A stretch of DNA of 64,000 nucleotides from Candidatus Peregrinibacteria bacterium. Lineage in GTDB: Bacteria > Patescibacteriota > Gracilibacteria > UBA1369 > LOWO2-01-FULL-3. Positions within the stretch are counted from its first letter, which is position 1. Each line of letters opens with the position of its first letter. A program made the position numbers and the translations under genes. The DNA is taken from contig JAPLYN010000005.1 of assembly GCA_026395515.1 (NCBI GenBank), positions 431,938-495,937 of the forward strand, written 5' to 3'. This document shows, in pieces, positions 27,991 to 50,065 of this stretch. The notes below the pieces were generated by a model. It did not search any database. It saw only the letters and a list, made by a program, of their open reading frames with translations, and was not told where the DNA came from.

Positions 27991-29034
27991 ATGTTTAAAT
28001 TAGAAAAAATATTTCGTACCGCAGTTCAATATCATGCTTCTGATATTTTTATTTCAACAGGCGTTAAACCAGCTTTGCGTATTAACGGCGACATTATAAA
28101 AATTGAAGATCACCCGCCTCTTACAAAAAAGATGGCAGAAGAATATCTTTTAGAAATTCTCTCGCCAGAACAAAAAAAGAAATTCGAACAAAGTCTCGAT
28201 ATGGATTTCTCGCTTGATATAGAGACAATCGCCCGCTTCAGAGTGAACATGTTCGTACAGAGAAAAGGTATCTCTGCAGCTTTCCGTCTCATTCCAGAAA
28301 AAGTAATGACTATGGATGAACTCGGATTACCTATTCAAATGAAACGCGCAACATCTTTCAAAAACGGTCTCGTAATTGTTACAGGTCCTACAGGTTCTGG
28401 AAAAACCAGCACCTTAGCTTCAATGATTAATGAAATCAATCGCAATCAAAAAAAACATATTATTACAATTGAAGATCCTATTGAGTTCGTTCACCAGGAT
28501 AATCAATCAATTATCGAACAACGTGAAGTTGGTACACATACTCACACTTTCCAAAAAGCTCTACGCGCCTCTGTACGTGAAAACCCAGATGTAATCATGG
28601 TCGGAGAAATGCGTGATTTGGAAACTATTCAGATGGCAATTACCGCAGCTGAAACAGGACATTTGGTATTCGCTACTTTGCATACAATGGGTTGTGCAGA
28701 TTCTATTAACCGTATTATCGATTCCTTCCCTTCAAACCAGCAAAATCAGGTTCGTTCTCAGTTAGCTGAGAGCTTGAAAGCAGTTTTCTGGCAAACTTTG
28801 ATTAAAACAAAAGATGAGAAAGGTCGTGTGGCAGGTCTAGAAATGATGTTCTGCAATAATGCGATCGCCAATATGATTCGTAAAGGAACTACTCATCAAA
28901 TTAATTCAGTTATTGAAACCTCTACAAAAGAAGGCATGCAAACTATGAAAAAATCTCTTACTGATTTATTGCAGGCAGGGCTTATTACAGAGGAAAATGC
29001 TCTATTAAACATGCCGAAAGAATTCGAAGGTTAA
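27991..29034 (+). CDS. pilT: Type IV pilus retraction ATPase PilT
   Basis: ASDIFI, RFRVN, GPTGSGKT, TIEDPIE, GEMRD, AETGHLVFATLH, AIANMIR and GMQT motifs. Confidence 0.92.
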   Translation: MFKLEKIFRTAVQYHASDIFISTGVKPALRINGDIIKIEDHPPLTKKMAEEYLLEILSPEQKKKFEQSLDMDFSLDIETIARFRVNMFVQRKGISAAFRLIPEKVMTMDELGLPIQMKRATSFKNGLVIVTGPTGSGKTSTLASMINEINRNQKKHIITIEDPIEFVHQDNQSIIEQREVGTHTHTFQKALRASVRENPDVIMVGEMRDLETIQMAITAAETGHLVFATLHTMGCADSINRIIDSFPSNQQNQVRSQLAESLKAVFWQTLIKTKDEKGRVAGLEMMFCNNAIANMIRKGTTHQINSVIETSTKEGMQTMKKSLTDLLQAGLITEENALLNMPKEFEG

Positions 29035-29052
29035 TAGCTCTTTAAAAACGAT

Positions 29053-29499
29053 ATGAAAAACTTTAAATCTACAATCAGAACGCTATTCATCAGCACCATA
29101 CTTGCCACATTTTTCGCAACAAGTTTTGCGTATGCGGGAATCAATGATAAAACTACTCCTCCCAATCCAAAAAACGATTTAACAGAAGGAACTTTCAACG
29201 TAAAAGAAAATTTAAAATTAGATAGCGGAGAACAACCTAAAAAATATTTTGCAGACAGTACACAGAGTCCTATTGTTTCTTTGATAATTACAGTAATTGA
29301 CTTTGCAATTACCATTATGGGATCAATCGCTGTGATTCTTTTCATCGTTGCCGGCTTTATGTTCATGGCCTCTCAAGGAAATTCACAAAAACTCGACGAA
29401 GCAAAAGATATTATAAAATACGCCGCAATAGGATTAATAGTAGCCCTATTGTCATACGTAATCACAATTTTCGTCCAATCAATTTTCTCAAATGGTTAA
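29053..29499 (+). CDS. VirB2/TrbC-like (T4SS-type) pilin 1
   Basis: Signal peptide plus two TM helices separated by SQGNSQKLDEAK; IGLIVALLSY. Confidence 0.75.
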   Translation: MKNFKSTIRTLFISTILATFFATSFAYAGINDKTTPPNPKNDLTEGTFNVKENLKLDSGEQPKKYFADSTQSPIVSLIITVIDFAITIMGSIAVILFIVAGFMFMASQGNSQKLDEAKDIIKYAAIGLIVALLSYVITIFVQSIFSNG

Positions 29500-30232
29500 A
29501 AAATTACTCGCGAAATTAGCTTTAGCAATCATGATTGGAGTAATGACTACCCCAATAGTTTTTGCCGGACCTGCTGGAAGCATAGAGGATCTCGGCGCAG
29601 CACTTGACGACATTAAAGATAAACCATGTATTGAAGAAGTTATCCCAAACGCTACTGATCCAAGTAAGCCGACACCAGGACCAGACGATGGTTATGTAAT
29701 TTCTATCATTGAAGAACCCCTAAATGTAGATGCTGACGAAACTAATCCAGATTACAAAATACGTCGTTGCTTCCGCAACACCTTCCAGTATAGAAAAAAT
29801 GAAAAAGTTGCAGACAAAGTTGTTAATGGAAAAGTAACAACAAAAGATAGCTGGGTACCAAAAACTTCAGCCATGCTTGCAAAAACTTGCTCAAACAATG
29901 CTCAAGAATTAATGAAAACCAACAAAGATAATGTTGACCTAAAAGTCTCTTACACATGTAAAGAAGTTCAGGCCATCCTTACAAAAGGAGGCACAAGTGC
30001 AATCTATGGCTACATCAACATGATTTATCGTTGGGGTGCCAGTCTTGTAGGTATTATTGCGGTAACAATTATTATTATCAGTGGAATCCAGATTTCCGCT
30101 TCCGGTGGTGATTCTGAAGCAGTCAATTCTGCAAAAAAACGTATTTTACAATCAGTTGTTGGTATCATCGTTCTATTCCTTTCAAGCTTGATACTTTACA
30201 CAGTCAATCCTACATTCTTCACAAACGGATAA
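29492..30232 (+). CDS. VirB2/TrbC-like pilin 2 with Cys-containing N-terminal domain
   Basis: Signal peptide; C-terminal TM-SGGDSEAVNSAKKR-TM...VNP. Confidence 0.72.
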   Translation: MVKKLLAKLALAIMIGVMTTPIVFAGPAGSIEDLGAALDDIKDKPCIEEVIPNATDPSKPTPGPDDGYVISIIEEPLNVDADETNPDYKIRRCFRNTFQYRKNEKVADKVVNGKVTTKDSWVPKTSAMLAKTCSNNAQELMKTNKDNVDLKVSYTCKEVQAILTKGGTSAIYGYINMIYRWGASLVGIIAVTIIIISGIQISASGGDSEAVNSAKKRILQSVVGIIVLFLSSLILYTVNPTFFTNG

Positions 30233-30726
30233 TGAAAAAAAATATTCTTAAAATTTTAGCACTTATACTTATCACCTTAAACTTAGGTGCCACAGTAGTG
30301 TTTGCCGAAACTCAAGGTGCAGCACAAGATTTCAAGCAAAGTGTAATTCCTAGACCAAGCACTTTACCTGGACCAAACGGAGATAATTCCACAAATGATG
30401 CCCTAAGAAAAACTTTGGTTAGCAATGTACTTCCAAAAATTGCCGTAATTTTAATTGGATCAATTGCTTCATTATCACTAGTTTTCCTCATCATCGCCGG
30501 TGTCAGATTCGCCACAGCCTACGGCAATGACGAGACTGTTCAGAAAGCAAAAAAACAGGCTATTTATGCCATCGTAGGTCTCATTATTTCACTAATGTCT
30601 TACACAATTGTAACTATCGTTTCGAATTTTAAGTATAATGAATTTAGTCCTGCATCGACGACAAATGGACCAATACACAATGAAACACCTGGTGCAGATT
30701 TACCTCAAAAAGATCCAAATCAATAA
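30232..30726 (+). CDS. VirB2/TrbC-like pilin 3
   Basis: Signal peptide; TM-AYGNDETVQKAKK-TM (VGLIISLMSY); TAATG overlap with pilin 2. Confidence 0.75.
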   Translation: MKKNILKILALILITLNLGATVVFAETQGAAQDFKQSVIPRPSTLPGPNGDNSTNDALRKTLVSNVLPKIAVILIGSIASLSLVFLIIAGVRFATAYGNDETVQKAKKQAIYAIVGLIISLMSYTIVTIVSNFKYNEFSPASTTNGPIHNETPGADLPQKDPNQ

Positions 30727-30748
30727 AATTCACAAGCAGCTTAAAACT

Positions 30749-31252
30749 ATGAAAAAAAAATTACTATTAACAATTTGCTTCGCAATAATTTGGACAATCT
30801 CGTTCAACAATTTAGCTTTAGCAGATTTGAAAAAGGGAGAAGGGGCAGTATGTAATTCAGAGGCAGATTGCGGATCAGGACTATCTTGCATTCCAGATCC
30901 ATCAAAATTAGATAAAAGCGGAGGAGCTCTAAAAGTTTGCCGCGACTTAGTTAATGTCCTTACACAACGCCCAACCACTACCAATACCGATGCACAACAA
31001 CTTACAAAACTTCCAGACGTAAGTCTCGAAGGAGGTATGACCTTGGCCATTAAAGCGATCCTACGTTCAGCTATGTATCTCACTATCATTGCCATCGTAG
31101 TCGCTGCAATCTACTACATCATCTCAAGAGGTAAAGACGAAGACATGACCAAAGCTAAAGATATCATTCTTTATCTCGTAATTGGTATGGCAATCATCGC
31201 TGCTGCTTATGGTATCGTAGCCGGTGTAACTCAATTCAATGTATTCAGCTAA
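30749..31252 (+). CDS. VirB2/TrbC-like pilin 4 with small Cys-rich module
   Basis: Start revised to MKKKLL; CNSEADCGSGLSC...C module; TM-SRGKDEDMTKAK-TM. Confidence 0.72.
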   Translation: MKKKLLLTICFAIIWTISFNNLALADLKKGEGAVCNSEADCGSGLSCIPDPSKLDKSGGALKVCRDLVNVLTQRPTTTNTDAQQLTKLPDVSLEGGMTLAIKAILRSAMYLTIIAIVVAAIYYIISRGKDEDMTKAKDIILYLVIGMAIIAAAYGIVAGVTQFNVFS

Positions 31253-31253
31253 A

Positions 31254-31661
31254 ATGATCAAGAAAATTTTTACAACTATACTCCTAGCAACTTCACTGCT
31301 CATCGCAGGAACTGCTGCAGCACAGGCTTACCAAATCGATCCATCTTATAGACCTTCAAACGAACCTTTTGCTTTAGATAAAACTATCAAGGACCAAGGT
31401 GCCTCAGGAGCTACCATAGTCGTTCTACAAATCATCGCTGGTGCCCTACTATACTTCGCCGCTCCAATAGGCATAATTATGATTGCCTGGTCAGGTGGAA
31501 GCATGGTGATTTTCGGCGCAGAGCAAGAAAAATTAGATGCTGCAAAAAAGCATCTTATTTGGTCAATTGTTGGCTTAGTAGTGATCATCCTTTCATACTC
31601 ATTAGTGAAAGTTATCATCACCGCAATCGTCGGCGCAGCCTCAATAGCCACAACTAATTAA
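31254..31661 (+). CDS. VirB2/TrbC-like pilin 5
   Basis: Start revised to MIKK; TM-GAEQEKLDAAKK-TM (VGLVVIILSY). Confidence 0.75.
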   Translation: MIKKIFTTILLATSLLIAGTAAAQAYQIDPSYRPSNEPFALDKTIKDQGASGATIVVLQIIAGALLYFAAPIGIIMIAWSGGSMVIFGAEQEKLDAAKKHLIWSIVGLVVIILSYSLVKVIITAIVGAASIATTN

Positions 31662-33199
31662 ACTTCGATTCTTGGGAAAAGAGGTTGAGTAACCTTGATG
31701 GCACTACCTTCTTTCAACATGCCCCACTTCGTATCAAGCTTCATGTCAGCGGTACTGATGCCCAATTGATCAGCAATCGCCTCAGCGGCACTTGGCAAAA
31801 TTGGCAAAAGCAAAGTGGCAATATACCTCAATAGCTCAAGTAGGTCGTAAAGTATCGGTGGCAAATCTGCCGGATTATTTTTAGCTACAGACCAAGGCTT
31901 TTTATCATCAATATATTTATTGGCAAAATTTGTTAATTCCACCAAAGTTTCACAAGCTTCTTTCAAATTAAAAGCTTCAAAAGAGTCGCAATATTTCTGC
32001 ATGAAATCAGCAACCTGACTAGATACTTCATCATTTGCAGTCTCCGCAGGAACCTTTCCTCCTACGTATCTATCCACCATCATCGTCACACGATTCACAA
32101 GATTACCAAGTGAATTAGCAAGATCACTATTAAATAATTCAATAAATTTTTTATTGCTGAAATCTCCATCATCAGTTGTAGAAATTTCTTTCAAAAGATA
32201 ATAACGCAAAGCATTAGTTCCAAATTTATCGATGTATTCTAAAGGATTCACTACGTTTCCAATGCTCTTGCTCATCTTCTGACCTTCACTAGTCACAAAG
32301 CCATGAACATAAATCGCTTTTGGCACTTTTTCACCTGCAGAAAGCAACATTCCAATCCAAATTCCCGCATGAAAACGCAAAATATCTTTACCAATTAAAT
32401 GCACATCACATGGCCAATATTTCTTAAAATTCGGCTCATCTTTTTCATAACCAAGAGCTGTAATATAGTTTGAAAGCGCATCGCACCACACGTACATCAC
32501 CTGATCTGGATCATTTGGAACATCAACACCCCAAGGTAAAAGATCTTTAGGACGAGAGAAACTCACATCACGCAAACCTTCCTCACCAATAATATTCAAC
32601 ATTTCATTCTTACGACTTTCTGGAAGAATAAGTAGCTCATCTGACTGAATTAATTTCTTAATTTTGTCAGAATATTTTGAAAGCTTGAAAAAGTAATTTT
32701 CTTCTTCTAGAAGTTTTGGTCTCTTTTTGTGAATCAAACAATTTCCTTCTGAATCCAAATCTTTTTCTCCGACATAGGCCTCACAACCCACGCAATAATT
32801 TCCCTTATAAGTATCTTTATAAATGTCACCCGCTTCAAACATTTTAGTCCAAATTTTCTGAGCACCAGCTTTATGGTGAGCTGAAGTAGTACGCACAAAA
32901 TCGTCATTTGAAAGCTGCAAAGTATATTTCAAAGCCATGAATTGTTCTGCATTCTTATCTACAAATTCTTGAGTGCTCATCTTTGCTGCCTGAGCTGCTT
33001 CATAAATTTTCACACCGTGTTCATCAGTACCTGTAAGAAAAAAAGTATCATCCCCTTTCAATCTATGATAACGACAAAGTGCATCAGCCTGAATAAACTC
33101 AAGTGCGTGACCAATATGCGGCGCGGCATTCACGTAAGCGATAGCCGTAGTAAGATAAAATTTCGATGATTTTTCAGATTTTTTTGCAGTTTTTTTCAT
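31658..33199 (-). CDS. metG: Methionyl-tRNA synthetase
   Basis: HIGH, TGTDEHG, YVWCDAL and KMSKS motifs. Confidence 0.97.
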   Translation of the reverse strand: MKKTAKKSEKSSKFYLTTAIAYVNAAPHIGHALEFIQADALCRYHRLKGDDTFFLTGTDEHGVKIYEAAQAAKMSTQEFVDKNAEQFMALKYTLQLSNDDFVRTTSAHHKAGAQKIWTKMFEAGDIYKDTYKGNYCVGCEAYVGEKDLDSEGNCLIHKKRPKLLEEENYFFKLSKYSDKIKKLIQSDELLILPESRKNEMLNIIGEEGLRDVSFSRPKDLLPWGVDVPNDPDQVMYVWCDALSNYITALGYEKDEPNFKKYWPCDVHLIGKDILRFHAGIWIGMLLSAGEKVPKAIYVHGFVTSEGQKMSKSIGNVVNPLEYIDKFGTNALRYYLLKEISTTDDGDFSNKKFIELFNSDLANSLGNLVNRVTMMVDRYVGGKVPAETANDEVSSQVADFMQKYCDSFEAFNLKEACETLVELTNFANKYIDDKKPWSVAKNNPADLPPILYDLLELLRYIATLLLPILPSAAEAIADQLGISTADMKLDTKWGMLKEGSAIKVTQPLFPRIEV

Positions 33200-33267
33200 G
33201 AACCAAGGCTATCAATAAGAAGCCTGCAAGTCAATCTACAGATGGAAAAACACTATTGAGCCAACTT

Positions 33268-34497
33268 TTACTTATCTTTACCGCCATACCAGTACTTCTC
33301 GCCATGCGCATCACCAGCACCTCCATCTGCACCAGTATGTTCCCCCTTTGTATCCATATAAGTGCTATACAAAGAGAAATTAAACACCGGCATAAATGAA
33401 TCACGTTTAATTTTCACATTCACACTCTGCTTACTCTTTCCACTGTACCCATCAGCCGTAATATCAGCATAATCACGCACTGCTTCTGTAGCCTTACCAT
33501 CAGTGAAAAGCTCAACACGATAGTTGATTTTACTTTGCTGATCACTAAGTTTTGGATCATTAAATATAGAAGGATTAATTAAATTAGTTAAAGTCAGATA
33601 ATTTAATTTATGATCGTTAATGAATCTTGATAAAGGCCAACAATGCTTAACCTCATTTGATCTCTCTCCCTCAATAAAACTATATAAATAAAATTCTCGT
33701 GCTTCCGTTTGAGTACAATTTAAAGACTCAGAATAAACCTGATAAAGCTGGCACTTAATTAAATCAGTATAACGCCCAGATCCTTCACATGGCTTTGTAC
33801 CAAACCATGAAGGCTGACTAGCACTGGTAAACGTTCCATCTAAAGTAGATGTTACAGCAGTAAAATCGCTTATACTCTCTGTCACCGGAGCCTTGCCTTT
33901 TATTGAATCATTTAACCCTACTATCTTCCACCTCAAAACATCCCAATCAGACACTGAAGATCCTTTTTGAGTAATCTTTATATCCTTTGGATTAAAATTA
34001 GCATAAAATTCCACATCAAAATCTGTAATTGGAGTAGGCATACCACCATCACCCAATACAAACAAAGGTATGGTAGCAGATTCATTTAAACCAAGTGTCG
34101 CATAGAAAGCTGAAATATCGGGAGCTGTACTCAATTTTCCCTCAACATCATAATCCTTATCAAAACAAGGATAAGCCTTACATTTATTACTGATTTTCAA
34201 TTCCGCTACTGCTTTAGAAGCCTCAATCTTATCCTTAGCGCCATCAATAATAATTGGCACTACGCCGCCTTTTGGCTCCCATCCTGGCAAACTATTTTTC
34301 ACACCATACAAACCAATTTCAGAAGCCGATTCAGCCGCATAAAAAGACTGTCCAGCATCCAAGAATTCACGTGTCACAATTGATTCACGCAAAACCAAAG
34401 TAGATAAAGCCAAAGAAATAGCCATCAACACTCCCATGACCAGCAAGGCCACAATGAGGGCAGTTCCTTTCCTATTTTTAAGCAGTTTGGCTTTCAT
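33268..34497 (-). CDS. PilX-like minor type IV pilin
   Basis: KG|TALIVALLV prepilin-like N-terminus lacking E5; SFYAAESASEIGL. Confidence 0.75.
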   Translation of the reverse strand: MKAKLLKNRKGTALIVALLVMGVLMAISLALSTLVLRESIVTREFLDAGQSFYAAESASEIGLYGVKNSLPGWEPKGGVVPIIIDGAKDKIEASKAVAELKISNKCKAYPCFDKDYDVEGKLSTAPDISAFYATLGLNESATIPLFVLGDGGMPTPITDFDVEFYANFNPKDIKITQKGSSVSDWDVLRWKIVGLNDSIKGKAPVTESISDFTAVTSTLDGTFTSASQPSWFGTKPCEGSGRYTDLIKCQLYQVYSESLNCTQTEAREFYLYSFIEGERSNEVKHCWPLSRFINDHKLNYLTLTNLINPSIFNDPKLSDQQSKINYRVELFTDGKATEAVRDYADITADGYSGKSKQSVNVKIKRDSFMPVFNFSLYSTYMDTKGEHTGADGGAGDAHGEKYWYGGKDK

Positions 34498-35162
34498 TAC
34501 TTAATATTAATATTACTGTATAGATAATTTGTCGGATAAACCTGACTATAAACTCTCGAAGATACTGTCGTCTGCAAATCCATTTTGTAATTTTTCCCAT
34601 TGCCAATATCCTTTGTAAACTCCGCATAAACAGTAACACGCGGCTGAAATTGACTAGTACTAAAATTAACACTCTTTGGATCAAACGGATCAATTTTTGG
34701 AGAATAATAAACTTTAAATTTAGTAACCCTCACACTCTTAGAATCATTCATAGGCACAAAATCTTGATCGCCACATATTTTATCTACAAAATTCTTCATA
34801 TCTACATCTGCTGATAATTTTACAACGTCAATACTCACCACTTCTTTAGCTTGATCATAACAAACGTGAGTACGCGTCATAGCATCCCTAGAAATTATAA
34901 ACATCTCCCCCTCCTTCAAATCATTTTTGGCAATTGTAGGATATCCGTAATCCACCATCCCATCTCTTAATTCCTGAACCAATGTTTCCATCACCTGACG
35001 CGCCTGCACATACATTTCACGATAAGAATTAGCATCGCGTTGTGCACGAATAATTCCAGTATAAGAACTAATTAAAATTCCTGTAAAAGTCATGAATATA
35101 GCCATGGAAATGAGCATTTCCACCAGCGTAAATCCTTTTTGTAATTTTATTTTTTTAAACAT
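34497..35162 (-). CDS. Type IV prepilin (PilW-like minor pilin)
   Basis: KG|FTLVEMLI. Confidence 0.85.
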   Translation of the reverse strand: MFKKIKLQKGFTLVEMLISMAIFMTFTGILISSYTGIIRAQRDANSYREMYVQARQVMETLVQELRDGMVDYGYPTIAKNDLKEGEMFIISRDAMTRTHVCYDQAKEVVSIDVVKLSADVDMKNFVDKICGDQDFVPMNDSKSVRVTKFKVYYSPKIDPFDPKSVNFSTSQFQPRVTVYAEFTKDIGNGKNYKMDLQTTVSSRVYSQVYPTNYLYSNINIK

Positions 35163-35168
35163 AATTTT

Positions 35169-35870
35169 TTATAAAGCTCCACCTTTCCAGTTAGTTAGCA
35201 CTTCAGATAGAACAAGGCTGCGAGGCTTCGCACCAATATTCCAATCGATCTTCGACTGCACCAAAATAAACTTACCAGTAACGCATAAATTGACTGAATA
35301 TTTGCTTAAATATGAGCAATCATATTGGCTAATACCAATTGTTCTTTTAAATCCGGTATCTCCATCAATAACCACATTTGAATCTAAGAAAGGCTTATCT
35401 ACACTCAACATTCCGTGACGATAAATTTTTCCCGCTCCACTACTAATTTCCCAAGGACTTTCAGCTCTAACCTCGCCAGAAGTAGGAGCCTTTGCGAAAT
35501 CTGGAGAATCCTGTTTAACAAAACTTTTTGTTCCAGCCGCATCCACTACATTCACAATATTATCATTCTTACCAACAATCAATTTTCCTCCCCATATCTG
35601 CATTGAATCCTTATCGTTTCCCAACCAATCCTTATTGTGCAACCAATTTGTATCACGAATATTACGCACAATTTCGAGACCTTCTTGAGAAAGATAATAA
35701 GCTTGAAGAGTTGTAAGATTATTTCTATTTGAATCAATAATTCCCGTCAAAAGGTTACTCGCTGAAACAATTGCCACAGTCAAAATCATCATACCAATCA
35801 TGACTTCCGTCAGAGTAAAGGCTTTCACATCCTTACTGATTTTTTTAATTTGTTTTAACATTTGTATCAA
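35169..35870 (-). CDS. Type IV prepilin (PilV-like minor pilin)
   Basis: KA|FTLTEVMI; AYYLSQEGLEIVRNIRD. Confidence 0.85.
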   Translation of the reverse strand: MIQMLKQIKKISKDVKAFTLTEVMIGMMILTVAIVSASNLLTGIIDSNRNNLTTLQAYYLSQEGLEIVRNIRDTNWLHNKDWLGNDKDSMQIWGGKLIVGKNDNIVNVVDAAGTKSFVKQDSPDFAKAPTSGEVRAESPWEISSGAGKIYRHGMLSVDKPFLDSNVVIDGDTGFKRTIGISQYDCSYLSKYSVNLCVTGKFILVQSKIDWNIGAKPRSLVLSEVLTNWKGGAL

Positions 35871-36576
35871 TTGGTTTTACAACAGCCTTAGCATTAGAAA
35901 GATTTAATTCAATTTGACGTTCATAATTTGGATCTAAAGTATCTCCGCTAGAGACAATTATTTTTACAATTTTTGGTTCAAGAATTTTATCAGGACCTTC
36001 AAGATTTCCAACCGCCTCAAGCTTTCCACTTGGAGGCAAAAATCTAAAAACTAATTTATCATAAGTAGTATTTCCATCATAAGAAACACTCAAAATTTTC
36101 ATTTGAGCATCCAAATTCAAAGACTGCTTAGGACTATTATCTTTCAAATCATCACATCCCTTATATCCCCAACTCTGACTTACATGTTTCCACACCTTAG
36201 TATTCACAAAAGGTACTTCAAAACTTTTCACAGTAAAATTACCGACATTTTTATCATTACTTTTTTCAAAAACAATTCCAAAACATTTAGATGTACCACC
36301 GGCAGAATCTTCAATTTTCACAGGATTAGCTGGAGTCTCTGCCCCCAATTCCTTCTTTATATCCTGAAATTTCTTATCTGTACTCGTTCCATACGTCGCC
36401 TTTGCCTTCATAGCATTCAGCTGCGAAACCAAATTATCCGCACCTAAATCAAGCAAAGCACTACGTCTATAAGTGATATAACCATTCACAGCCAAAGTAC
36501 TAAGCATAGCGATGATTCCCATCACCACTAAAATCTCCACCAGAGTAAATCCTTTTTGTGATTTTAGAATTTTCAT
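35845..36576 (-). CDS. Type IV prepilin (FimU/GspH-like)
   Basis: KG|FTLVEILVV. Confidence 0.85.
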   Translation of the reverse strand: MKILKSQKGFTLVEILVVMGIIAMLSTLAVNGYITYRRSALLDLGADNLVSQLNAMKAKATYGTSTDKKFQDIKKELGAETPANPVKIEDSAGGTSKCFGIVFEKSNDKNVGNFTVKSFEVPFVNTKVWKHVSQSWGYKGCDDLKDNSPKQSLNLDAQMKILSVSYDGNTTYDKLVFRFLPPSGKLEAVGNLEGPDKILEPKIVKIIVSSGDTLDPNYERQIELNLSNAKAVVKPIDTNVKTN

Positions 36577-36590
36577 CTCTTCGGATTATT

Positions 36591-37916
36591 TTAATTACCT
36601 ACTGTGCTTCCTAGATTGAAGATCGGCGCCATAATAGCCAAAGCCAAAAGCGCTACAAAAAGACCAACCACTAGAATCATTACTGGTTCAAAAATTGAAG
36701 TTAGCTTTTTCAATGAATTATCAATCTCGCGCTGATATTGCTCAGAGATCTTTTCGCATACCTTCGCCACACTAGCTGATGCTTCACCCACCGCAAACAT
36801 TTCCACAATTTCTCCAGGAAATAAATATGAACTATCCTTTAAACTCTCTGAAATCTTTGAACCTTTCTTCACCTGATTCAAAACTTCCTGAACTTTTAAT
36901 TTATAAATTCTATTACTAAGAGAATTTCCGGTAATTTTCAATGAAGTAATAATAGGCAATCCTGAATCAATCAAAATTCCCAACATACTAATAAAATTAA
37001 ATACCTGAACTCTCTTTATCATCTGTCCAACGATAGGAAATCTCAATTTTGTATAATCCCAACTCACAGCACCATCAGCACTATGAACGTACATATTAAA
37101 CAATCCGTAAATTCCAAAAACTACCAAACCAATCACCCACCAATAGCCAGTAATTGCCGTCTGTAAGCCCATCAAAACACGAGTAGCTAAAGGCAATTTA
37201 TCACCAGCAATACCACCATCTTTAAGTAAAGAAAGTAGACTAGGGAAAATCCAAACCAACATACCAGTAGCCACAAGAACGAGCACTACGAGTACCGCAA
37301 TCGGATACACTGCCGCTCCCCAAAGCTTCATAGAAAGATCATGTTTCTTATCTAATTGATCTGCAAGCTTGAAAAGCATGGTATTCAAATTACCAGTAGC
37401 TTCACCAGACTTGATAATACCAATTTCCAATTCATCAAAAATATCTTCAAAACGAGTCATAGCATCAGATAAATTAGCACCTGAATCACAACTATAACCG
37501 ATAGTATCCAAAACACGTTTAAAGTGTTTGTTCTCTGCACGATCAGCAAGTGATTTCACAGCTTGTACTACAGGAATTCCCGCATCAACCATCACCGCCA
37601 ACATATGAAAAAAATAAGACTTATCCTTAAGTGTAATCTTTGAATGATCAATCAAAAAATCATCAAATTGCACAAAAATTCCTTTATCAGAATTATTGTA
37701 CACGCCATAAATTACCTTTGCGGTAGGGTCACTATTGAAGTGCTTAATTTTATCAAGAATTTCATCACCAGCTTCAAGACCAGAAACTACATCTGACTGA
37801 TCACTCGCCATTTCGTGATTCACCGCTTCATGCTTCATCTCAACAGGTTTAACTGGAGGATTGGCAGGAGCCGGAGTATTTACCGGAGTATTAATTTTTA
37901 AACCATCAAATTCCAT
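36591..37916 (-). CDS. pilC: Type IV pilus platform protein PilC/GspF
   Basis: LAVMVDAGIP, GEATGNL, VYP, GEASA and FEP...APIF motifs. Confidence 0.9.
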   Translation of the reverse strand: MEFDGLKINTPVNTPAPANPPVKPVEMKHEAVNHEMASDQSDVVSGLEAGDEILDKIKHFNSDPTAKVIYGVYNNSDKGIFVQFDDFLIDHSKITLKDKSYFFHMLAVMVDAGIPVVQAVKSLADRAENKHFKRVLDTIGYSCDSGANLSDAMTRFEDIFDELEIGIIKSGEATGNLNTMLFKLADQLDKKHDLSMKLWGAAVYPIAVLVVLVLVATGMLVWIFPSLLSLLKDGGIAGDKLPLATRVLMGLQTAITGYWWVIGLVVFGIYGLFNMYVHSADGAVSWDYTKLRFPIVGQMIKRVQVFNFISMLGILIDSGLPIITSLKITGNSLSNRIYKLKVQEVLNQVKKGSKISESLKDSSYLFPGEIVEMFAVGEASASVAKVCEKISEQYQREIDNSLKKLTSIFEPVMILVVGLFVALLALAIMAPIFNLGSTVGN

Positions 37917-37918
37917 AT

Positions 37919-38488
37919 TTATTTTTGTTGAAAGTAAGTATCAATTGAAAGAGAGAAACTAGCTCTTTCCACATCAGAAATTTCTAATTTATTTACCTGA
38001 ACATTCACAGAATCAACTCTAAAAATACGTCCATTCTGTTCAAGTCCCATCAAGAAATTCGTCAAATCCTGATAGTTTCCTTCAAAAGTAGAAGAAATAC
38101 GAAGACTACCAATGCCATCTTTAGCACCAGCACCTTTCGCAAAACTAATTGAATGCAAAGCCACATTATTCTGCTTCGCAATCTGAATAATATCCTTGAT
38201 TACAGAATCTTCATTCACACCAACCGGAACAGCCTTAATGCTTTCCTGTCTCTGTACTTCACTTGTTAATTGCAACTCCTGCTCAGCCTTATTCAAAGTC
38301 TCAAGCTGAGTCTTCATACCATCAAGAGTAGTAGTTTTTGTTGAAACATCAGCTTTTACCACATCCAAGTTAGTAGAAACTGGTCTAATAATAAAAGTGT
38401 ACCCAGCGATAGCGCATACAATCAACAAAACACCAATTAAAGTAGTTTTATTAGAATTGTCTGCAAAGCGTATTTCTTGTTCGTTCAT
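37919..38488 (-). CDS. pilO: PilO-like alignment protein
   Basis: N-terminal TM segment, coiled coil, GNYQDLTNFLMGLEQNGRIFRVDSV; context next to pilC. Confidence 0.75.
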   Translation of the reverse strand: MNEQEIRFADNSNKTTLIGVLLIVCAIAGYTFIIRPVSTNLDVVKADVSTKTTTLDGMKTQLETLNKAEQELQLTSEVQRQESIKAVPVGVNEDSVIKDIIQIAKQNNVALHSISFAKGAGAKDGIGSLRISSTFEGNYQDLTNFLMGLEQNGRIFRVDSVNVQVNKLEISDVERASFSLSIDTYFQQK

Positions 38489-38514
38489 ATATTTATTTTT
38501 ATTTTTTATTAAAA

Positions 38515-39156
38515 TTAACGAGCTATTGGAGAAGCCGCTTCCACAGGAGCAACTGGTTTCTCATCTGTTTTCACAGTTTTATCTTCAAGTCCCTTATCTA
38601 AAACTGTAGAAAGAGTGTCATTCAAATTTGGTTCATCAGTTTGAGGAACATATTTTGCACTAAGCATAAAACTCAAGACATCTTTACCAGACGCATCCGC
38701 TCCAGAAGAAATTGATGGAACAAAAACATCCACAAACATCTTTGAATCTGTAAAACTCTTAATCACAGCAGCTACATCCAAATATGGACTTTCACTACTA
38801 GAATAAGTTTTCATATTAAGAGAAATTTCATTAGAAGAAGAACCAGAATAAGAAAGAATCTCCGCAATCGGAGAAACTCCACTCTTTGGAACTGTCGCAC
38901 GAATATAAGTAATCACTTTAGACCACTCAACAGTGCCTTTCTTCAGATCATTTACCGTCTGTTTAGCATTAATAGCCTGAGTAATTTGAGCATTTTCTTT
39001 TTCATTTATTTTCGCCTGATACTCAGAAATAGATTTATCCAAAACGGCCACCTGATCAGCAGTAGATGATCTCTGCCAAAAAGCATAACCTGTATAAATC
39101 ACTACCACTAGCAGCACAGCAGCGCCCAAATAGAGAAGAAAGGAAACTCGTTTCAT
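38515..39156 (-). CDS. PilN-like protein
   Basis: N-terminal TM segment, coiled coil, WSKVITYI; upstream of pilO. Confidence 0.6.
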   Translation of the reverse strand: MKRVSFLLYLGAAVLLVVVIYTGYAFWQRSSTADQVAVLDKSISEYQAKINEKENAQITQAINAKQTVNDLKKGTVEWSKVITYIRATVPKSGVSPIAEILSYSGSSSNEISLNMKTYSSSESPYLDVAAVIKSFTDSKMFVDVFVPSISSGADASGKDVLSFMLSAKYVPQTDEPNLNDTLSTVLDKGLEDKTVKTDEKPVAPVEAASPIAR

Positions 39157-44915: not shown

Positions 44916-45296
44916 ATGGACAAAAAAGTAATTATCGGAGGTTTGACCGTCTTAGGAATTATTATTTTAATTCTTCTTGGCCTCAAAAGCTGCAACCCTC
45001 GCACCAAAGTAATCAGCTCCGACGCCGAAGAATATTCTGCTTTTATTAATGCAAATATTGAGTTCACTTGCATGGTGATGAAAGATACTACTTTAGCTGC
45101 AAATACTCCTGAAAACCACAAAAAACTCGACGACATTTATGCTAAATATAAGCTTCCAGTAGCTAATAATGAGCAAATGCTCGGCATTCTCAATAAATAC
45201 TCCGACGATGCTGGCGTTGCCACTATCATTCAACAAAATACCGAGAACTGCCTAAAAGGCGGCAGTCCAATTTTCTATCAAGCAGCAGCGAAATAA
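44916..45296 (+). CDS. Hypothetical membrane-anchored protein
   Basis: N-terminal TM segment followed by Cys; 126 aa. Confidence 0.75.
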   Translation: MDKKVIIGGLTVLGIIILILLGLKSCNPRTKVISSDAEEYSAFINANIEFTCMVMKDTTLAANTPENHKKLDDIYAKYKLPVANNEQMLGILNKYSDDAGVATIIQQNTENCLKGGSPIFYQAAAK

Positions 45297-45375
45297 AACC
45301 GCCAATTCACTTTTTTAACACAAAAAACACTCCCCGCAATTGCAAGTTAAAAAATTTCGACTATAAAGTAAAACT

Positions 45376-46302
45376 ATGCAGAAGAAACTTATCGAATGTA
45401 TTCCAAATTTCAGTGAAGGTCGCGACCCGAAAAAAATTAAAAAAATTCAGGACGCAATCAGTCATGTAAAAGGAATCCACATCTTGAATTATACTAGCGA
45501 TACAGATCACAATCGTACTGTCATCACTTTTGTCGGCGAACCGAAAGAAGTCTACAAAGCTGCTTACGAAGCCGTAAAAACTGCAGCTAAAATCATCAAT
45601 CTCAACGATCATATTGGCGTACATCCACGCATTGGAGCTACCGATGTTCTTCCCTTTGTACCACTACAAAACACAAACGTTAAAGAATGTGTAGAACTAG
45701 CCAAAAAACTTAGCGCCCAAATCGGTAAAGAATTAAAAATCCCAGTCTATCTTTACGAAAAAGCTGCTACTCGCCCAGAACGTGAAAACCTCAGCGACAT
45801 CCGCAATGTTGGTTACGAAAAACTCAAAGAAGAAATTGGCACCAATCCAGAAAGAAAACCTGACTATGGACCTGAAAAACTCACTACTGCTGGAGCTATA
45901 GCCATCGGTGTTCGAGAAATTCTCATCGCCTACAATGTAAATCTCAACACAAACGACATCTTCCTCGCTCGCGATATAGCTAGAACAATTCGTCAAAGCA
46001 ATGGCGGACTCTCATACGTAAAAGCGCTAGGACTTGAGCTCGCAGACCGCGGAATTGTTCAAGTTTCCATGAATCTCACAAACTACAAAGAAACTAGCGT
46101 CAAAACTGTCTACGATCTAATTAAAAAAGAAGCTAAAAAAGAAGGCGTAGAAATTCTCGAAAGTGAAGTCATCGGCCTAATTCCACAAAAACCTCTCACT
46201 GAATGTGGTAGTGACTACAAAAAATACCTCAAACTAAACTCCCAATTCAAAGAAAGCCAAATCCTAGAAGTCGCCCTCAAGCAAGCCTCCACTAAAAAAT
46301 AA
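45376..46302 (+). CDS. ftcD: Glutamate formimidoyltransferase (stand-alone FT domain)
   Basis: LIECIPNFSEGR, DHNRTV, HPRIGATDV, LIAYNVNL and QVSMNL motifs. Confidence 0.9.
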   Translation: MQKKLIECIPNFSEGRDPKKIKKIQDAISHVKGIHILNYTSDTDHNRTVITFVGEPKEVYKAAYEAVKTAAKIINLNDHIGVHPRIGATDVLPFVPLQNTNVKECVELAKKLSAQIGKELKIPVYLYEKAATRPERENLSDIRNVGYEKLKEEIGTNPERKPDYGPEKLTTAGAIAIGVREILIAYNVNLNTNDIFLARDIARTIRQSNGGLSYVKALGLELADRGIVQVSMNLTNYKETSVKTVYDLIKKEAKKEGVEILESEVIGLIPQKPLTECGSDYKKYLKLNSQFKESQILEVALKQASTKK

Positions 46303-46327
46303 GCTCCAGATTGCATTTTTCCGCATA
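46301..46327 (+). repeat. 27-bp direct repeat, left copy (aagctccagattgcatttttccgcata)
   Basis: Exact match to 48093-48119. Confidence 0.95.
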
Positions 46328-46368
46328 AAGCCATTCAAAACCGCCATTAAATATGGTATAATTTACCA

Positions 46369-48090
46369 ATGGCAAAAGAACCTACAAAAACAAAAAAAGA
46401 ACCAGGAGAAATAGACGAATTAGAACTAAAATCTCCCCTTCCACCAGAATCAGCACCTCAAGCTGTTGATGCTTCAGCAGCGCCAATCGCAGACATAATT
46501 TCCACTACAACTGCCGAAGCCACAAAAGAAGAATTAGATCTCAAAGCAGTCAGGGATTCAGTAGAAAATTACAGTGGTGAAGGTTTCTCCGAAAGAGCCC
46601 AAGAAAAAGCAGAATTAACAGAATATCTCCAAAGACTAGGCAAAGACAAAGGTCGCTATTTTGGCAATATAGTACATCAAGGAGTAAGAGATCATTTCGG
46701 TAAAGATGATCATATGAGCGGACTAGGACAATATGCAGCAGAAATAAACGCGCTAATAAATGATGATGCCATAAAAAGCAGATTATGTCGCCAAAAAAAC
46801 GACCCGGAATACATAGCAACAGTGAAATTAGCCGTACAAAAATTAATGGAAGAAAAAAATCTTTCAGAAGAAGAAGCTTTTCAATATTTTGCCGAGACAC
46901 AATTATCCCTCAATGAAGATGGCCATCAAGGAATTACAGATGGTTTAGCGGTACATTTTAGTTCAAATAGTATTTTGAATGTATTTTATGGAGCCGAAAC
47001 GGACAATGAAGCCTTTTTAATTGTTCCAGAAAACATTGCCCTCACAGGAAGACAATACTGGTCTAGAGCCGTTGATACAGCCTATAGCAGAGATACTATG
47101 TACAATGATGTTTATATTTGGCCGGAACACGGCGAAGAAAACGGAATTTCTCTTAATGGAAGTCTTATTTTTGTACCAAGAGATAACGAAATAGATGAAC
47201 AAAATGGCTCCCAATACGAAATTGAAAATGGAAAAGTAGTAGTAGATATAGATAAAATTGAAAAATTCTATAAAGCAATCAGTAAATTAGACAAAAGCGA
47301 CTATCAAAATTACCGTAAAGAAGTAATAAAAGTCGGTAAAGCTCTAGGGTTTGATGAAAAAAAAGTAGATGAACTATCTACTCAATATTATGGAAGCCCT
47401 GAGGTAGCAGAAGAAAAAGAAAAATTAGAATCAATATTCGAAGGAGAAGAGTTGGAAGAAATTAAAAAGTATATCAAAGCTGTGCTGCTAGTAGATTCTA
47501 AATATTCAGATATCGGAATAGCCTTAACATACTTTTCAGAACTAGAAGAGCTAAAAGAAAGCTATAGACCTTTGCAAAAAGAAAGACTAATTAGAGCCGG
47601 ATTCAATACTGATATTCTTGATGAAATATTTGCTGATCCAGTAAAAAAATCCGCAATACAAAAATTCGTAGATAAATACGCAGAAAATTATTCATACTTA
47701 GCAAAAAACAGTCATGGATTTTTCTACAAATCAGCCACCAAATCAGTTGCAGCAAAAAAATATTATGAAAAATTAATTCTTGCCGAATTCAAAGACGTCA
47801 AAATAAGAGAAATAAAATCAGCCACTCAAGACATTGTGGAATATAGAGGCCATGATCAGAATGGAAAAGAAAAAGTGCTAAGAGTAGTCTATTATACAAA
47901 CACAGATCCAAACCGGGCCGTTAGAAAATTTTATCAAGATTTAGGAATACAATTTGATGATAGAGTTATAGACGACACATCTGACGAAGCCGACAAAGCT
48001 ACGCGAGACACAAAGCGCACAACTTTCGAAGATGTTAAGTACAGATATGACTACAAACAACTTCGAACCAATGTTCTCAACCAATTTTAA
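46369..48090 (+). CDS. Hypothetical 573-aa acidic protein flanked by direct repeats
   Basis: Long ORF; extended -10 TGGTATAAT 6 nt before the ATG; low-complexity Pro/Ala/Glu N-terminus. Confidence 0.85.
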   Translation: MAKEPTKTKKEPGEIDELELKSPLPPESAPQAVDASAAPIADIISTTTAEATKEELDLKAVRDSVENYSGEGFSERAQEKAELTEYLQRLGKDKGRYFGNIVHQGVRDHFGKDDHMSGLGQYAAEINALINDDAIKSRLCRQKNDPEYIATVKLAVQKLMEEKNLSEEEAFQYFAETQLSLNEDGHQGITDGLAVHFSSNSILNVFYGAETDNEAFLIVPENIALTGRQYWSRAVDTAYSRDTMYNDVYIWPEHGEENGISLNGSLIFVPRDNEIDEQNGSQYEIENGKVVVDIDKIEKFYKAISKLDKSDYQNYRKEVIKVGKALGFDEKKVDELSTQYYGSPEVAEEKEKLESIFEGEELEEIKKYIKAVLLVDSKYSDIGIALTYFSELEELKESYRPLQKERLIRAGFNTDILDEIFADPVKKSAIQKFVDKYAENYSYLAKNSHGFFYKSATKSVAAKKYYEKLILAEFKDVKIREIKSATQDIVEYRGHDQNGKEKVLRVVYYTNTDPNRAVRKFYQDLGIQFDDRVIDDTSDEADKATRDTKRTTFEDVKYRYDYKQLRTNVLNQF

Positions 48091-48092
48091 TC

Positions 48093-48119
48093 AAGCTCCA
48101 GATTGCATTTTTCCGCATA
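48093..48119 (+). repeat. 27-bp direct repeat, right copy; contains the rnpB -35
   Basis: Exact match to 46301-46327. Confidence 0.95.
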
Positions 48120-48130
48120 TGTATTATAAT
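48103..48130 (+). promoter_or_regulatory. rnpB promoter
   Basis: TTGCAT-16-TATAAT, 6 nt before the first base of the P1 helix. Confidence 0.75.
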
Positions 48131-48136
48131 AACTCC

Positions 48137-48604
48137 GCTCTTAAATGAGTTGGAGTGATCACTTTGATTCGGCAAAATTCGGCGCAAGCCAGACAAGTCA
48201 TTATCAGAGAGGAAAGTCCGAACACCAAGGGAAATCGTAGCCGCTAACAGCGCGCCACAAAGGCCATAATTCGCAAGAATAAAACCTTTGAGGGAAAGTG
48301 CCACAGAGACAATACTAACCCAACCGCAAGGAAGGGCAAAAGGTGAAAAGTCCGTTTAAGGCGGAAGGCTACAAGGAATTGCTAGCAGTTGGTAAACCCT
48401 ACGAGGTGCAAGGTAAGATGGAAAAGTCTTCGTTCTCCCAAATGAATGAAACTTTCTCACCGCAACGAGTTGTAAACGTGGTTCCAAAGTCTGAAAGGAC
48501 GATAAAGAATCTCCAAACAGCCAACAGATAGATGATCACATCCGCTCCGGCCTCACGGCCTGATCGTGAAACAAAATTCGGCTTATGAAGATTCATTTAA
48601 GAGC
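48137..48604 (+). ncRNA. rnpB: RNase P RNA (bacterial)
   Basis: GAGGAAAGTCCGAAC and ACAAAATTCGGCTTA (P4 pairing); GAAAGTGCCACAGA; GGTAAACCC; terminal P1 helix gctcttaaatgagtt/gattcatttaagagc. Confidence 0.95.
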
Positions 48605-48625
48605 TTCAAAAACATAAATAGCCTC

Positions 48626-50065
48626 ATGAAGCGTTTCGAAATATCCTTCGGTCTCCTAAAAATCCCAACAGATTTTCTGATGACCGTGCTCGCCTTCATG
48701 GTTGCCTACAAACTTCGTCTTATCACTGAACCAATCGAGGGTTTTTCTAAAGCCATCGATTTTTCCGTATTACCTACTCTCGCTCAATACTTTCTTTTCA
48801 GCTTAAAAGCCGCTGTAGCCCTCATCATAGTCTTCGGTCTCGGCCACATGTACACTTTGAAAACCACTTCTAAATTTACTACAGAAATCAGAAAAAATAT
48901 TATCCTCTGTATAATCTGGGCCACATTAATTATCTCCTATTTTTTCTTTGCCAGAATGTTCCCATTCTCCAGATTAGCCATGGCTTACAGCTGGGGCCTC
49001 ACACTACTTTTTACAATATTTGGTCGCGCCATTATCCGCTTCATTCAAAAAGGTTTTCTCCATATGGGAGTAGGTCAATGCCGTCTAATTTTTATTGGAA
49101 ACAACAGCATCACTCAAGAGATTGCAATGAGTCTCAGCAAAAATCCAAGCTATAAAATAATGGGTCTTATTGGAAATAAAACCCCAGAAGGAAATATAAA
49201 GTGTCTTGGCAATATGTCCGATCTCGAAACTATTCTCAAAAGAAATAAAGTCGACGAAATTATTCAAACTAAATCAGATATCAATGAAGCTCAGGATCAA
49301 AAAATCCTAGAATTTTGCGAACTAAACCAAATCGATTATCGCTTTATTCCTGATCTACTAGAGGTTCGTCGCACAAATATTAACGTAGAAACTATCAGCG
49401 GAATTCCTATCATCAGCTTAAAACCAACACCACTAGACGGTTGGGGTAAAGTCGCAAAAAGACTTCTCGATATTATTGGTGCCACTTTCGGCCTCATCAT
49501 TCTTTCTCCAATTTTTCTTATTACAGCAATTGCCATCAAGCTAGATTCAAAAGGACCAATCATCTTCAGAAAACTCGAAGATGGCTCCCCTGCGCGTCGC
49601 GTAGGACAAAAGGAAAGGCTTTTCACCTGCTACAAATTCCGCTCAATGTTTAAAGATACTCATCACTTGCGCTATGGAGAATTGGCAAAAAAGAATCTCC
49701 GCAAAGATGGACCTCTAATGAAAATCGCTGATGACCCTCGCGTCACCAAAGTAGGAAAATTTATTCGCCGTTATTCTATCGATGAATTACCACAGCTTTG
49801 GAATGTCTTAATCGGCAACATGAGTCTCGTCGGTCCTAGACCTCACCTTCCTGAAGAAGTAGCCAAATATCAAAAACAACACCACTTCGTTTTCAACATC
49901 AAACCAGGCTTAACCGGTATTTCCCAAATAAGTGGCCGTTCCGATCTCAGCTTTGATGAAGAAGCCAAGCTCGACCGTTTCTACATTGAGAACTGGTCTA
50001 TCTTGAGCGACCTCAAAATCATCCTAGGAACACTAGGCGTGATTGCGAAGGGATATAAAGAATAA
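48626..50065 (+). CDS. Polyprenyl-phosphate sugar-1-phosphate transferase (WcaJ/WbaP family)
   Basis: KRLLDI, YKFRSM, DPRVT, SIDELPQLWNV, SLVGPRP and KPGLTG motifs. Start revised to MKRFE, downstream of rnpB. Confidence 0.92.
   Translation: MKRFEISFGLLKIPTDFLMTVLAFMVAYKLRLITEPIEGFSKAIDFSVLPTLAQYFLFSLKAAVALIIVFGLGHMYTLKTTSKFTTEIRKNIILCIIWATLIISYFFFARMFPFSRLAMAYSWGLTLLFTIFGRAIIRFIQKGFLHMGVGQCRLIFIGNNSITQEIAMSLSKNPSYKIMGLIGNKTPEGNIKCLGNMSDLETILKRNKVDEIIQTKSDINEAQDQKILEFCELNQIDYRFIPDLLEVRRTNINVETISGIPIISLKPTPLDGWGKVAKRLLDIIGATFGLIILSPIFLITAIAIKLDSKGPIIFRKLEDGSPARRVGQKERLFTCYKFRSMFKDTHHLRYGELAKKNLRKDGPLMKIADDPRVTKVGKFIRRYSIDELPQLWNVLIGNMSLVGPRPHLPEEVAKYQKQHHFVFNIKPGLTGISQISGRSDLSFDEEAKLDRFYIENWSILSDLKIILGTLGVIAKGYKE

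Follow-up and report, generated by a model that had tools for sequence, protein, structure and literature searches.

A gene between two copies of a 27-bp repeat at the RNase P RNA promoter of a Peribacteria genome: probable scar of an old insertion with long target duplication

Organization of the ftcD-rnpB locus

We analyzed a 64,000-nucleotide (nt) stretch of DNA (hereafter the window) from an uncultured Peribacteria bacterium of the candidate phyla radiation (CPR). Between ftcD, the gene for glutamate formiminotransferase, and rnpB, the gene for RNase P RNA, the window holds a single gene for a 573-amino-acid (aa) protein, which we call the cargo gene. It is bracketed by two exact copies of a 27-mer, AAGCTCCAGATTGCATTTTTCCGCATA, and we read the arrangement as the probable scar of an old insertion. 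The genome (G000) is a metagenome assembly of 1,300,673 bases in six contigs, 99.9% complete, and the window lies on contig C6. A previous annotation made from the letters of the window (the sequence-only reading) had described the repeat and proposed either a site-specific integration or an excisable cassette. The features of the locus, with positions counted from the first nucleotide of the window, are as follows.

45376-46302, forward strand: ftcD (Pfam FTCD_N, 1.9e-67; FTCD, 6e-27)
46301-46327, forward strand: left copy of the 27-bp duplication, with a -35-like TTGCAT at 46311-46316 and no -10 element behind it
46334-46362, forward strand: promoter-like site of the cargo gene, TTCAAA, 17 nt and a TG-extended TATAAT, matching 10 of 12 consensus positions
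46369-48090, forward strand: cargo gene, an open reading frame (ORF) of 573 aa, assigned to a CPR-wide family without a name
46666-47962, forward strand: hypervariable centre of the cargo gene, as judged from sliding-window identity, nonsynonymous and synonymous divergence (dN and dS) and three alleles
48093-48119, forward strand: right copy of the 27-bp duplication, with TTGCAT at 48103-48108; upstream half of the rnpB promoter
48125-48130, forward strand: -10 hexamer of rnpB, TATAAT, 16 nt past TTGCAT, kept in the genus and in family loci
48143-48602, forward strand: rnpB, RNase P RNA of bacterial class A (Rfam RF00010, 118.5 bits against a gathering score of 100)

The two copies matched exactly at the positions given in the sequence-only reading, and none of 100 shuffles gave two matches to the 27-mer. 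At three or fewer mismatches, a third copy was absent from the window and from the whole of G000; the further genomic copies for which the sequence-only reading had suggested looking were thus not found. The window has 54 ORFs of at least 150 aa, of which the cargo gene alone was flanked by an exact repeat longer than 11 nt. As described before, the ends of the repeat sit tightly against the coding sequences: the ftcD stop codon TAA (46300-46302) shares 2 nt with the left copy, and the right copy begins 2 nt past the cargo stop codon. The first four bases of the insert, AAGC, are also the first four bases of the 27-mer, and the left junction reads CGCATA followed by AAGC. Downstream, an inverted repeat at 48137-48148 and 48593-48604 forms the arms of the P1 stem of rnpB.

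A 34.8-kb contig from the probable source run covered the locus with zero differences. In a second sample of the same study, contigs bridged 45209-46602 and 47897-49209, that is, both junctions, again with zero differences. The structure is therefore not an assembly artefact, one of the outcomes that had been named as refuting the original description.

Parts of two functional elements fall within the duplicated 27 bp: the ftcD stop codon contributes its final two bases, and the rnpB promoter its -35 half. In the right copy, 16 nt separate TTGCAT from a TATAAT just ahead of rnpB; no such -10 hexamer follows the left copy, as the sequence-only reading had noted. The same layout recurs upstream of rnpB throughout the family, with a TTGCA-type hexamer and, 17-18 nt further on, a TATAAT-like hexamer. 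Because the 27 bp hold the end of one gene and the -35 element of the next, only an insertion that duplicated them could survive. The cargo gene also has, as had been proposed, a promoter-like site of its own. Its extended -10 ends 6 nt ahead of the ATG, an arrangement also found in the sister species, and the cargo mRNA is probably leaderless.

The excess of A-ending codons in the cargo gene, at first judged by eye, proved measurable: A occupied 0.49 of third codon positions (z +2.8), the highest value among 636 ORFs of at least 250 aa, and G+C at third positions was 0.23, the 3rd percentile of the same set. Overall G+C was 0.31-0.35 within the gene versus ~0.38-0.42 outside it. Homologues were sporadic, occurring in 3 of 61 relatives and in 6 of 301 genomes of the phylum. 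Atypical codon use together with this sporadic occurrence would speak for a foreign origin of the cargo gene.

The ftcD-rnpB junction in related genomes

We fetched 30 ftcD loci from the family, that of G000 included, and compared the junction in detail with five same-genus genomes (G001-G005, with G004 as the sister species). The P4 motif of rnpB lay 218 nt or less past the stop of the ftcD frame, with no gene between, at 16 of the 30 loci, in eight genera, and in all of these tight loci ftcD abutted or overlapped the rnpB promoter. Four loci had 0.6-0.9 kb between the two genes, and at ten rnpB was not within the fetched flank. These ten comprised G000 and G004, in which inserts push rnpB out, as well as three loci with a longer fused ftcD frame and one near a contig end, among others. 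Because the tight junction is found at 16 of the 30 loci and in eight genera, we take the empty ftcD-rnpB junction to be shown, by this comparison, as the ancestral state of the family. As a separate observation, the ftcD stop overlaps the rnpB -35 element, or the ftcD frame enters the 5' end of rnpB, at loci L072, L074, L076 and L077, and in several genera a protein gene and the RNase P RNA gene have sequence in common.

Within the genus, G003 has an uninterrupted site, the empty allele that the sequence-only reading had proposed to look for: a single copy lies directly past the ftcD stop, its left flank running into ftcD and its right flank into rnpB. In G002, the stop of the ftcD frame abuts the -35 element. 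The single-copy sequences of G003, G005 and G001 aligned with the right copy of G000 and on into the -10 element, and the left copies of G000 and G004 stopped matching these single-copy sites exactly after CGCATA. The earlier idea of an insertion footprint at an unusual target, a promoter upstream of rnpB, is supported, and the ftcD stop as well as the rnpB promoter is kept intact by the duplication.

Other relatives carry other DNA at the same place. In G005, a 210-aa M23 peptidase gene without a flanking repeat lies between ftcD and rnpB (L011 847-1479). In G001, a related M23 peptidase gene directly follows ftcD (L057 2423-3064), and rnpB is on another contig. These M23 genes (210-213 aa) are thus present in two non-sister species, with differing left junctions. 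Three loci from other genera, L065, L080 and L082, contain 0.6-0.65 kb of other DNA at the junction, likewise with no flanking repeat. Taken together, these alignments show a hotspot holding different cargo in different relatives. The earlier expectation of different cargo between the same repeats was accordingly half right: the cargo differs in G005 and G001, and the repeat is missing at G005.

A tree of FtcD proteins, from which G002 was left out as its sequence is partial, had the topology (G001,(G003,(G005,(G000,G004)))) with support of 92-100%, G000 and G004 being sisters at 100/98. The rnpB gene of G000 was 81-89% identical over nearly its full length to those of G004 and G003, and 75-88% identical over parts to those of the other three same-genus species. 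The G005 rnpB (L009/L011/L014, C42 2903-3547) matched that of G000 in three pieces (query 1-54, 85-351 and 407-491), a pattern suggestive of replaced helices or lineage-specific insertions in that RNA.

Age of the insertion and divergence of the cargo gene

The sister species G004 shares the insertion. Its gene order is ftcD, a left copy with a 1-nt deletion, a 563-aa homologue of the cargo, an additional 167-aa ORF, a 24-nt right copy and rnpB. The left junction, the cargo promoter and the ends of the cargo gene are common to both species, with 61 of 66 spacer positions identical. For codons 31-120 and 481-573, at the two ends of the cargo gene, synonymous divergence (dS) between the species was 0.47 and 0.69, respectively, compared with 0.39 in ftcD and 0.59 in the downstream sugar transferase gene. 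Because the left junction is shared and the dS of the cargo ends matches that of the flanks, the insertion predates the split of G000 and G004; we take these comparisons to show an old insertion, inherited vertically since before that split.

The repeat gained no third copy when the 167-aa gene was added in G004, and the two G004 genes have no repeat between them. The idea of an excisable cassette mobilised in trans is not supported: the insertion predates the sister split, the later addition in G004 lacks a third copy, and other cargo at the junction lacks the repeat. In addition, the G004 cargo ORF is bracketed by an exact 15-nt repeat, TATAATTACACAATG, at L004 1483-1497 and 3231-3245. It consists of the -10 box, the 6-nt spacer and the ATG, and its second copy stands ahead of the 167-aa ORF (chance ~2e-4). 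It may represent either a promoter that was copied or another, nested target duplication.

The centre of the cargo gene behaves differently from its ends. Nucleotide identity to G004 was 46-76% over 46666-47962, as against 93-95% near the cargo ends and 90-98% in the flanks, and for codons 121-480 we obtained a dN of 0.44 and a dS of 1.41 (NG86). A third allele, P0002, with 68% identity, likewise had conserved ends and a variable centre. Either the centre evolves very fast, or divergent alleles swap in by within-gene recombination; under either reading, the 27-mers are not the boundaries of exchange. The two copies within G000 were identical at 27 of 27 positions. Between G000 and G004, the left copy was kept at 26 of 27, the sole change in G004 being the deletion of the G of TTGCAT.

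Recombinases, a second duplication and DNA uptake genes

None of the 58 window ORFs of at least 110 aa that were scanned matched a recombinase or transposase, in agreement with the sequence-only reading. The insert contains one ORF without a Pfam match, and no terminal inverted repeats were listed. That reading had also advised a search for genome-encoded recombinases, and these do exist, on contigs other than that of the locus: contigs C1 and C4 encode three Xer-like tyrosine recombinases of ~300 aa, and contig C5 has one serine recombinase-like frame. Joints between 46327 and 48120 (excised site) or 48092 and 46301 (circle) were found in none of the contigs of four runs over 45000-49500, which, being contigs, drop rare variants, so that this result speaks neither for nor against mobility.

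A screen of the whole of G000 for short exact direct repeats separated by 0.3-8 kb gave a second case. Downstream of ppnK lies a 1908-aa gene (C1 16284-22208; L088 1785-7708) flanked by a 60-bp duplication, of which 34 nt are exact and 57 of 60 match overall. The duplication covers the last codons and the stop of ppnK and is unrelated to the 27-mer. In G003 the ppnK site is single; on its left side it aligned with the sequence before the left copy, and on its right side with the sequence past the right copy. A DNA search found the 1908-aa gene in none of the five same-genus genomes. This comparison shows a second, unrelated long target duplication in G000. By eye, the N-terminus of the 1908-aa protein resembles an HExxH peptidase.

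Two other pairs from the screen were set aside. A 36-nt pair at C1 59132/61134 was rejected as a target duplication, being a dispersed repeat with 19 genome matches in both orientations; moreover, the glycosyltransferase gene within it occurs in all five same-genus genomes. The dispersed AT-rich repeat itself is ~25-36 nt long (C1 59120-59185 and 18 further places, none in the window) and mostly intergenic. Besides its 19 matches in G000 it has many in the five same-genus genomes, and it folds weakly (-9 kcal/mol for 66 nt). The second pair, a direct repeat of 42 exact nt at C5 83732/84383 (83732-84424; L089 1233-1925), brackets a gene with an ORF6N domain. It does not fit a simple flanked insertion: in comparison with G004, the extra DNA is the neighbouring gene of 361 aa, which starts at the right copy.

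G000 also carries genes for DNA uptake. It encodes ComEC and DprA, and the window contains a type IV pilus set at 27991-39156, comprising a T2SSE-family ATPase, four ORFs with a T4SS_pilin domain, two N_methyl prepilins, T2SSF/PilC and PilO. Type IV pilus gene sets are typical of CPR bacteria. Judging from this gene content, DNA uptake by G000 is plausible.

The cargo protein and its family

The cargo protein gave nothing usable against Pfam, PHROGs, PADLOC, NCBIfam or a PDB sequence profile, and had no relatives in IMG/VR or in a scan of JGI metagenomes; a search of JGI metagenomes with the rnpB 5' pattern returned 0 loci. By contrast with its earlier description as an orphan, a profile built from 38 family members detected 581 representative clusters at E<=0.001, 413 of them at E<=1e-30, and the best 150 of the 581 were mostly 500-650 aa long. 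With relatives at 38 loci in many CPR lineages, the cargo is, by profile matching, a member of a sporadic CPR-wide family without a name. Among the 38 loci in other genomes, rnpB is next to the family gene in the sister species alone, with one more case ~3.9 kb away. An exact flanking repeat of at least 18 nt was found at none of 34 other cargo-family loci in CPR.

Alignment of the family revealed 17 invariant columns, including R107, D108, H109, H115, D191, H196, Y207, G208, E210, N213 and E214. We modelled the cargo protein with AlphaFold (AF2; mean pLDDT 83) and performed a structural search (VIA, 48,161 chains). Four chains of DarT, the DNA ADP-ribosyltransferase toxin of the DarTG system, ranked first (Z 7.4, 7.1, 6.8 and 6.8; 139-147 residues aligned), followed by yeast Tpt1 (Z 5.8). 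The model of a 445-aa member, 22% identical to the cargo, had the same five chains on top, with Z from 7.0 down to 5.5. For both models, the DarT matches covered 134-147 of ~210 residues at Z 6.2-7.4, which is below the tool's reliability bar of 8. Foldseek found nothing in PDB at E<=0.001 for the cargo model, and ESM Atlas gave scores <0.9 and TM <0.3. The Pfam DarT profile PF14487 matched none of five family members even at E<=10, and found nothing in G000 or in any of the 301 genomes of the phylum; none of 14 control genomes matched it either.

We therefore treat the predicted core of the cargo, an ADP-ribosyltransferase (ART)-like fold of the DarT/Tpt1 kind with a helical insert of ~160 aa, as a reproducible lead and not as a result. 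From the models we infer that the cargo may be an NAD-dependent transferase of ART fold, in which the fast-evolving helical centre would set the target. Like DarT and Tpt1/KptA in its model ranking, the cargo is unlike DarT in lacking a sequence-level match, in being ~3 times longer and carrying the helical insert, and in having no adjacent macrodomain partner; no DarG-like macrodomain gene adjoining it was seen among the window ORFs.

Origin of the duplication

Taking these results together, we favour the view, which we hold to be probable though well short of certain, that the locus is the fossil scar of a single illegitimate insertion of the kind termed "insertion with long target duplication", and neither an att footprint nor a live cassette. 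A foreign gene unit of ~1.77 kb with its own promoter would have been joined into the very short stretch that separates the rnpB -10 element from the ftcD stop, and the 27 bp of target between the two joints would have been left on both sides of the insert. As to the route, we favour a model in which the cell, whose genome carries type IV pilus, ComEC and DprA genes, took up foreign DNA that was then joined in at staggered breaks or integrated by template switching or by a one-sided crossover. The presence of two unrelated duplications of different length in one genome argues for a process independent of sequence. The element would no longer be mobile.

Several points weigh against this view. 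The mechanism of joining is not given in the portion of the literature available to us and is not legible from the sequence. At 27 bp, the repeat falls short of the working threshold of 30 bp set by Furuta, Abe and Kobayashi (2010; PMC2853133, available to us in part), and the core identities of att sites span this length too. Possession of ComEC and DprA is not restricted to naturally competent bacteria, and a control search for them matched 10-11 of 14 genomes. The state of the genus ancestor is ambiguous, with an M23 gene in G001 and G005 and an empty site in G003; the state right before the insertion must nevertheless have been empty, because the left copy directly follows the ftcD stop. 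The left copy, moreover, has outlasted synonymous sites, which differ by 0.31-0.41 in the flanks (P of one or fewer differences, 7e-4 to 1e-5). It would thus not be decaying like a neutral scar, and constraint or gene conversion is possible; against other intergenic spacers (13% mismatch), its conservation was not unusual (P = 0.11). Finally, because AAGC opens both the insert and the 27-mer, a microhomology-based or two-step origin is conceivable.

That last point leads to one of the alternatives that we weighed. A tandem 27-bp duplication might have arisen first and the gene then entered the second copy with a 4-bp duplication of AAGC, or the donor DNA might already have borne a copy of the rnpB promoter and been anchored by rnpB homology (homology-facilitated illegitimate recombination). 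The left junction does continue tandem-like for four bases, CGCATA then AAGC, and rnpB is a well-conserved anchor. We nonetheless think such an origin unlikely, in that no relative has a tandem 27-bp duplication without cargo, the 4-nt match may be chance, and of the cargo-family loci elsewhere only that of the sister species adjoins rnpB, which counts against an imported promoter copy. The sequence-only reading had taken the repeats for an attL/attR-like footprint of Campbell-type integration of a small circle. We judge quite unlikely such an origin, in which a tyrosine or serine recombinase acting in trans (possibly of Xer type, as for IMEX elements) would have used the region of the rnpB promoter for its attB. 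In its favour, the single cargo beside a stable-RNA gene is flanked by exact direct repeats whose length suits att sites, and G000 does encode Xer-like and serine-like recombinases. However, no integrase lies in or beside the insert, the 27-mer is nowhere else in the genome and shows no dyad symmetry by eye, and the event is ancient by dS. Neither the other cargo at the junction nor the second gene of G004 came with a repeat or an extra copy, and the ppnK insertion has an unrelated repeat of different length.

A further possibility, which would fit any origin, is that the left copy has been kept for a function, for instance because it assists the cargo promoter from upstream or offers a second site to a factor controlling rnpB. 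It ends 7 nt ahead of the cargo -35 element, and 26 of its 27 positions are kept between species at a dS of 0.4-0.6. The G004 change, however, removes the G of TTGCAT, so that the -35-like hexamer is not kept, and the degree of conservation equals that of another promoter-bearing spacer (74/80); we give this reading very little weight. An assembly artefact or chimeric contig, which a metagenome assembly in six contigs might raise, has, as far as contigs can show, a negligible chance of being right, given the zero-difference contigs from two samples and the same architecture in G004. The fossil scar of one illegitimate insertion thus remains our preferred explanation.

Comparison with known insertion types

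The closest counterparts that we found are those of Furuta, Abe and Kobayashi (2010; PMC2853133), of which only part of the text was available to us. According to that part, restriction-modification units had inserted without any other mobile element, and the target duplications beside them were long, variable and unique in the genome; the repeat was present once in the genome lacking the insert. In one Haemophilus case, a 46-bp repeat overlapped the 3' end of a gene by 2 bp. Most cases came from naturally competent species, and the same part of the text gives no mechanism beyond a suspected role of double-strand breaks. Restriction and modification genes were the search criterion there, combined with a working cut-off of >30 bp meant to exclude typical site-specific cores, and the authors credit earlier work with the first description, in Helicobacter pylori.

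Compared with those cases as far as the available text describes them, the present locus is likewise a small gene unit without transposase, integrase or inverted repeats, and its direct repeat is unique in the genome and single at a related empty site, that of G003. It shares the 2-bp overlap with the 3' end of the upstream gene seen in the Haemophilus case, an insert G+C below that of the surroundings, and a host with DNA uptake genes. It differs, again within that part of the text, in that the cargo has no restriction-modification match (Pfam, PADLOC, NCBIfam), the target is an RNase P RNA promoter and the host a CPR bacterium. The 27 bp are under the cut-off, which the 60-bp ppnK case meets. 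The event here is old and fixed in two species, whereas theirs are strain polymorphisms. In the text at hand they suggest DNA breaks made by the restriction enzyme as the trigger; nothing equivalent is evident here, unless the putative ART-like cargo acts on DNA.

Integrative elements of tRNA and tmRNA genes (attL/attR), integrase-less remnants included, resemble the locus in having direct repeats around cargo beside a stable-RNA gene that is still functional, since the element restores the displaced part. Here, however, a promoter upstream of the RNA gene is duplicated and not its 3' end, no integrase or remnant is present, the core is not reused, and the second G000 insertion has an unrelated repeat. 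In the literature available to us in part, rnpB as an integration site for genomic islands received nothing beyond incidental mention. Integron cassettes, too, are single-gene units added in turn at one place, as the second G004 gene was at the edge of the right copy, but near the locus there is neither an attI nor an integron integrase, an imperfect palindrome of the attC kind is missing, and the cargo has its own promoter. Insertion sequences and transposons differ in their terminal inverted repeats, their transposase and their short duplications, as against 27 bp here.

Significance

Insertion scars of this kind are already known yet poorly understood, and nothing shows that this one still moves. 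With this locus, "insertion with long target duplication" would reach past restriction-modification cargo and take in an ultra-small CPR genome as well as an essential ribozyme's promoter. Such an extension weakens the idea that a nuclease of the cargo's own is required for such insertions. A broader picture can be drawn, which we offer as a tentative possibility and consider doubtful: CPR bacteria such as Peribacteria may routinely gain genes without recombinases, by uptake through pili and ComEC and with duplication of 15-60 bp of target that automatically keeps gene ends and promoters; the ftcD-rnpB junction would then be a long-lived multi-cargo hotspot, and the cargo an enzyme that ADP-ribosylates DNA or RNA and recognises its target through a centre that can be swapped. 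A cargo of that kind would parallel the link of DNA-damaging restriction-modification genes to such insertions.

For the biology of these bacteria, the locus would offer a natural example of how a compact genome takes a gene into a spacer of ~40 bp with neither neighbour damaged. It marks the ftcD-rnpB junction as a recurrent site of gene gain in the family, and it draws attention to a sporadic, CPR-wide protein family that has no name, a predicted ART-like core and a hypervariable centre.

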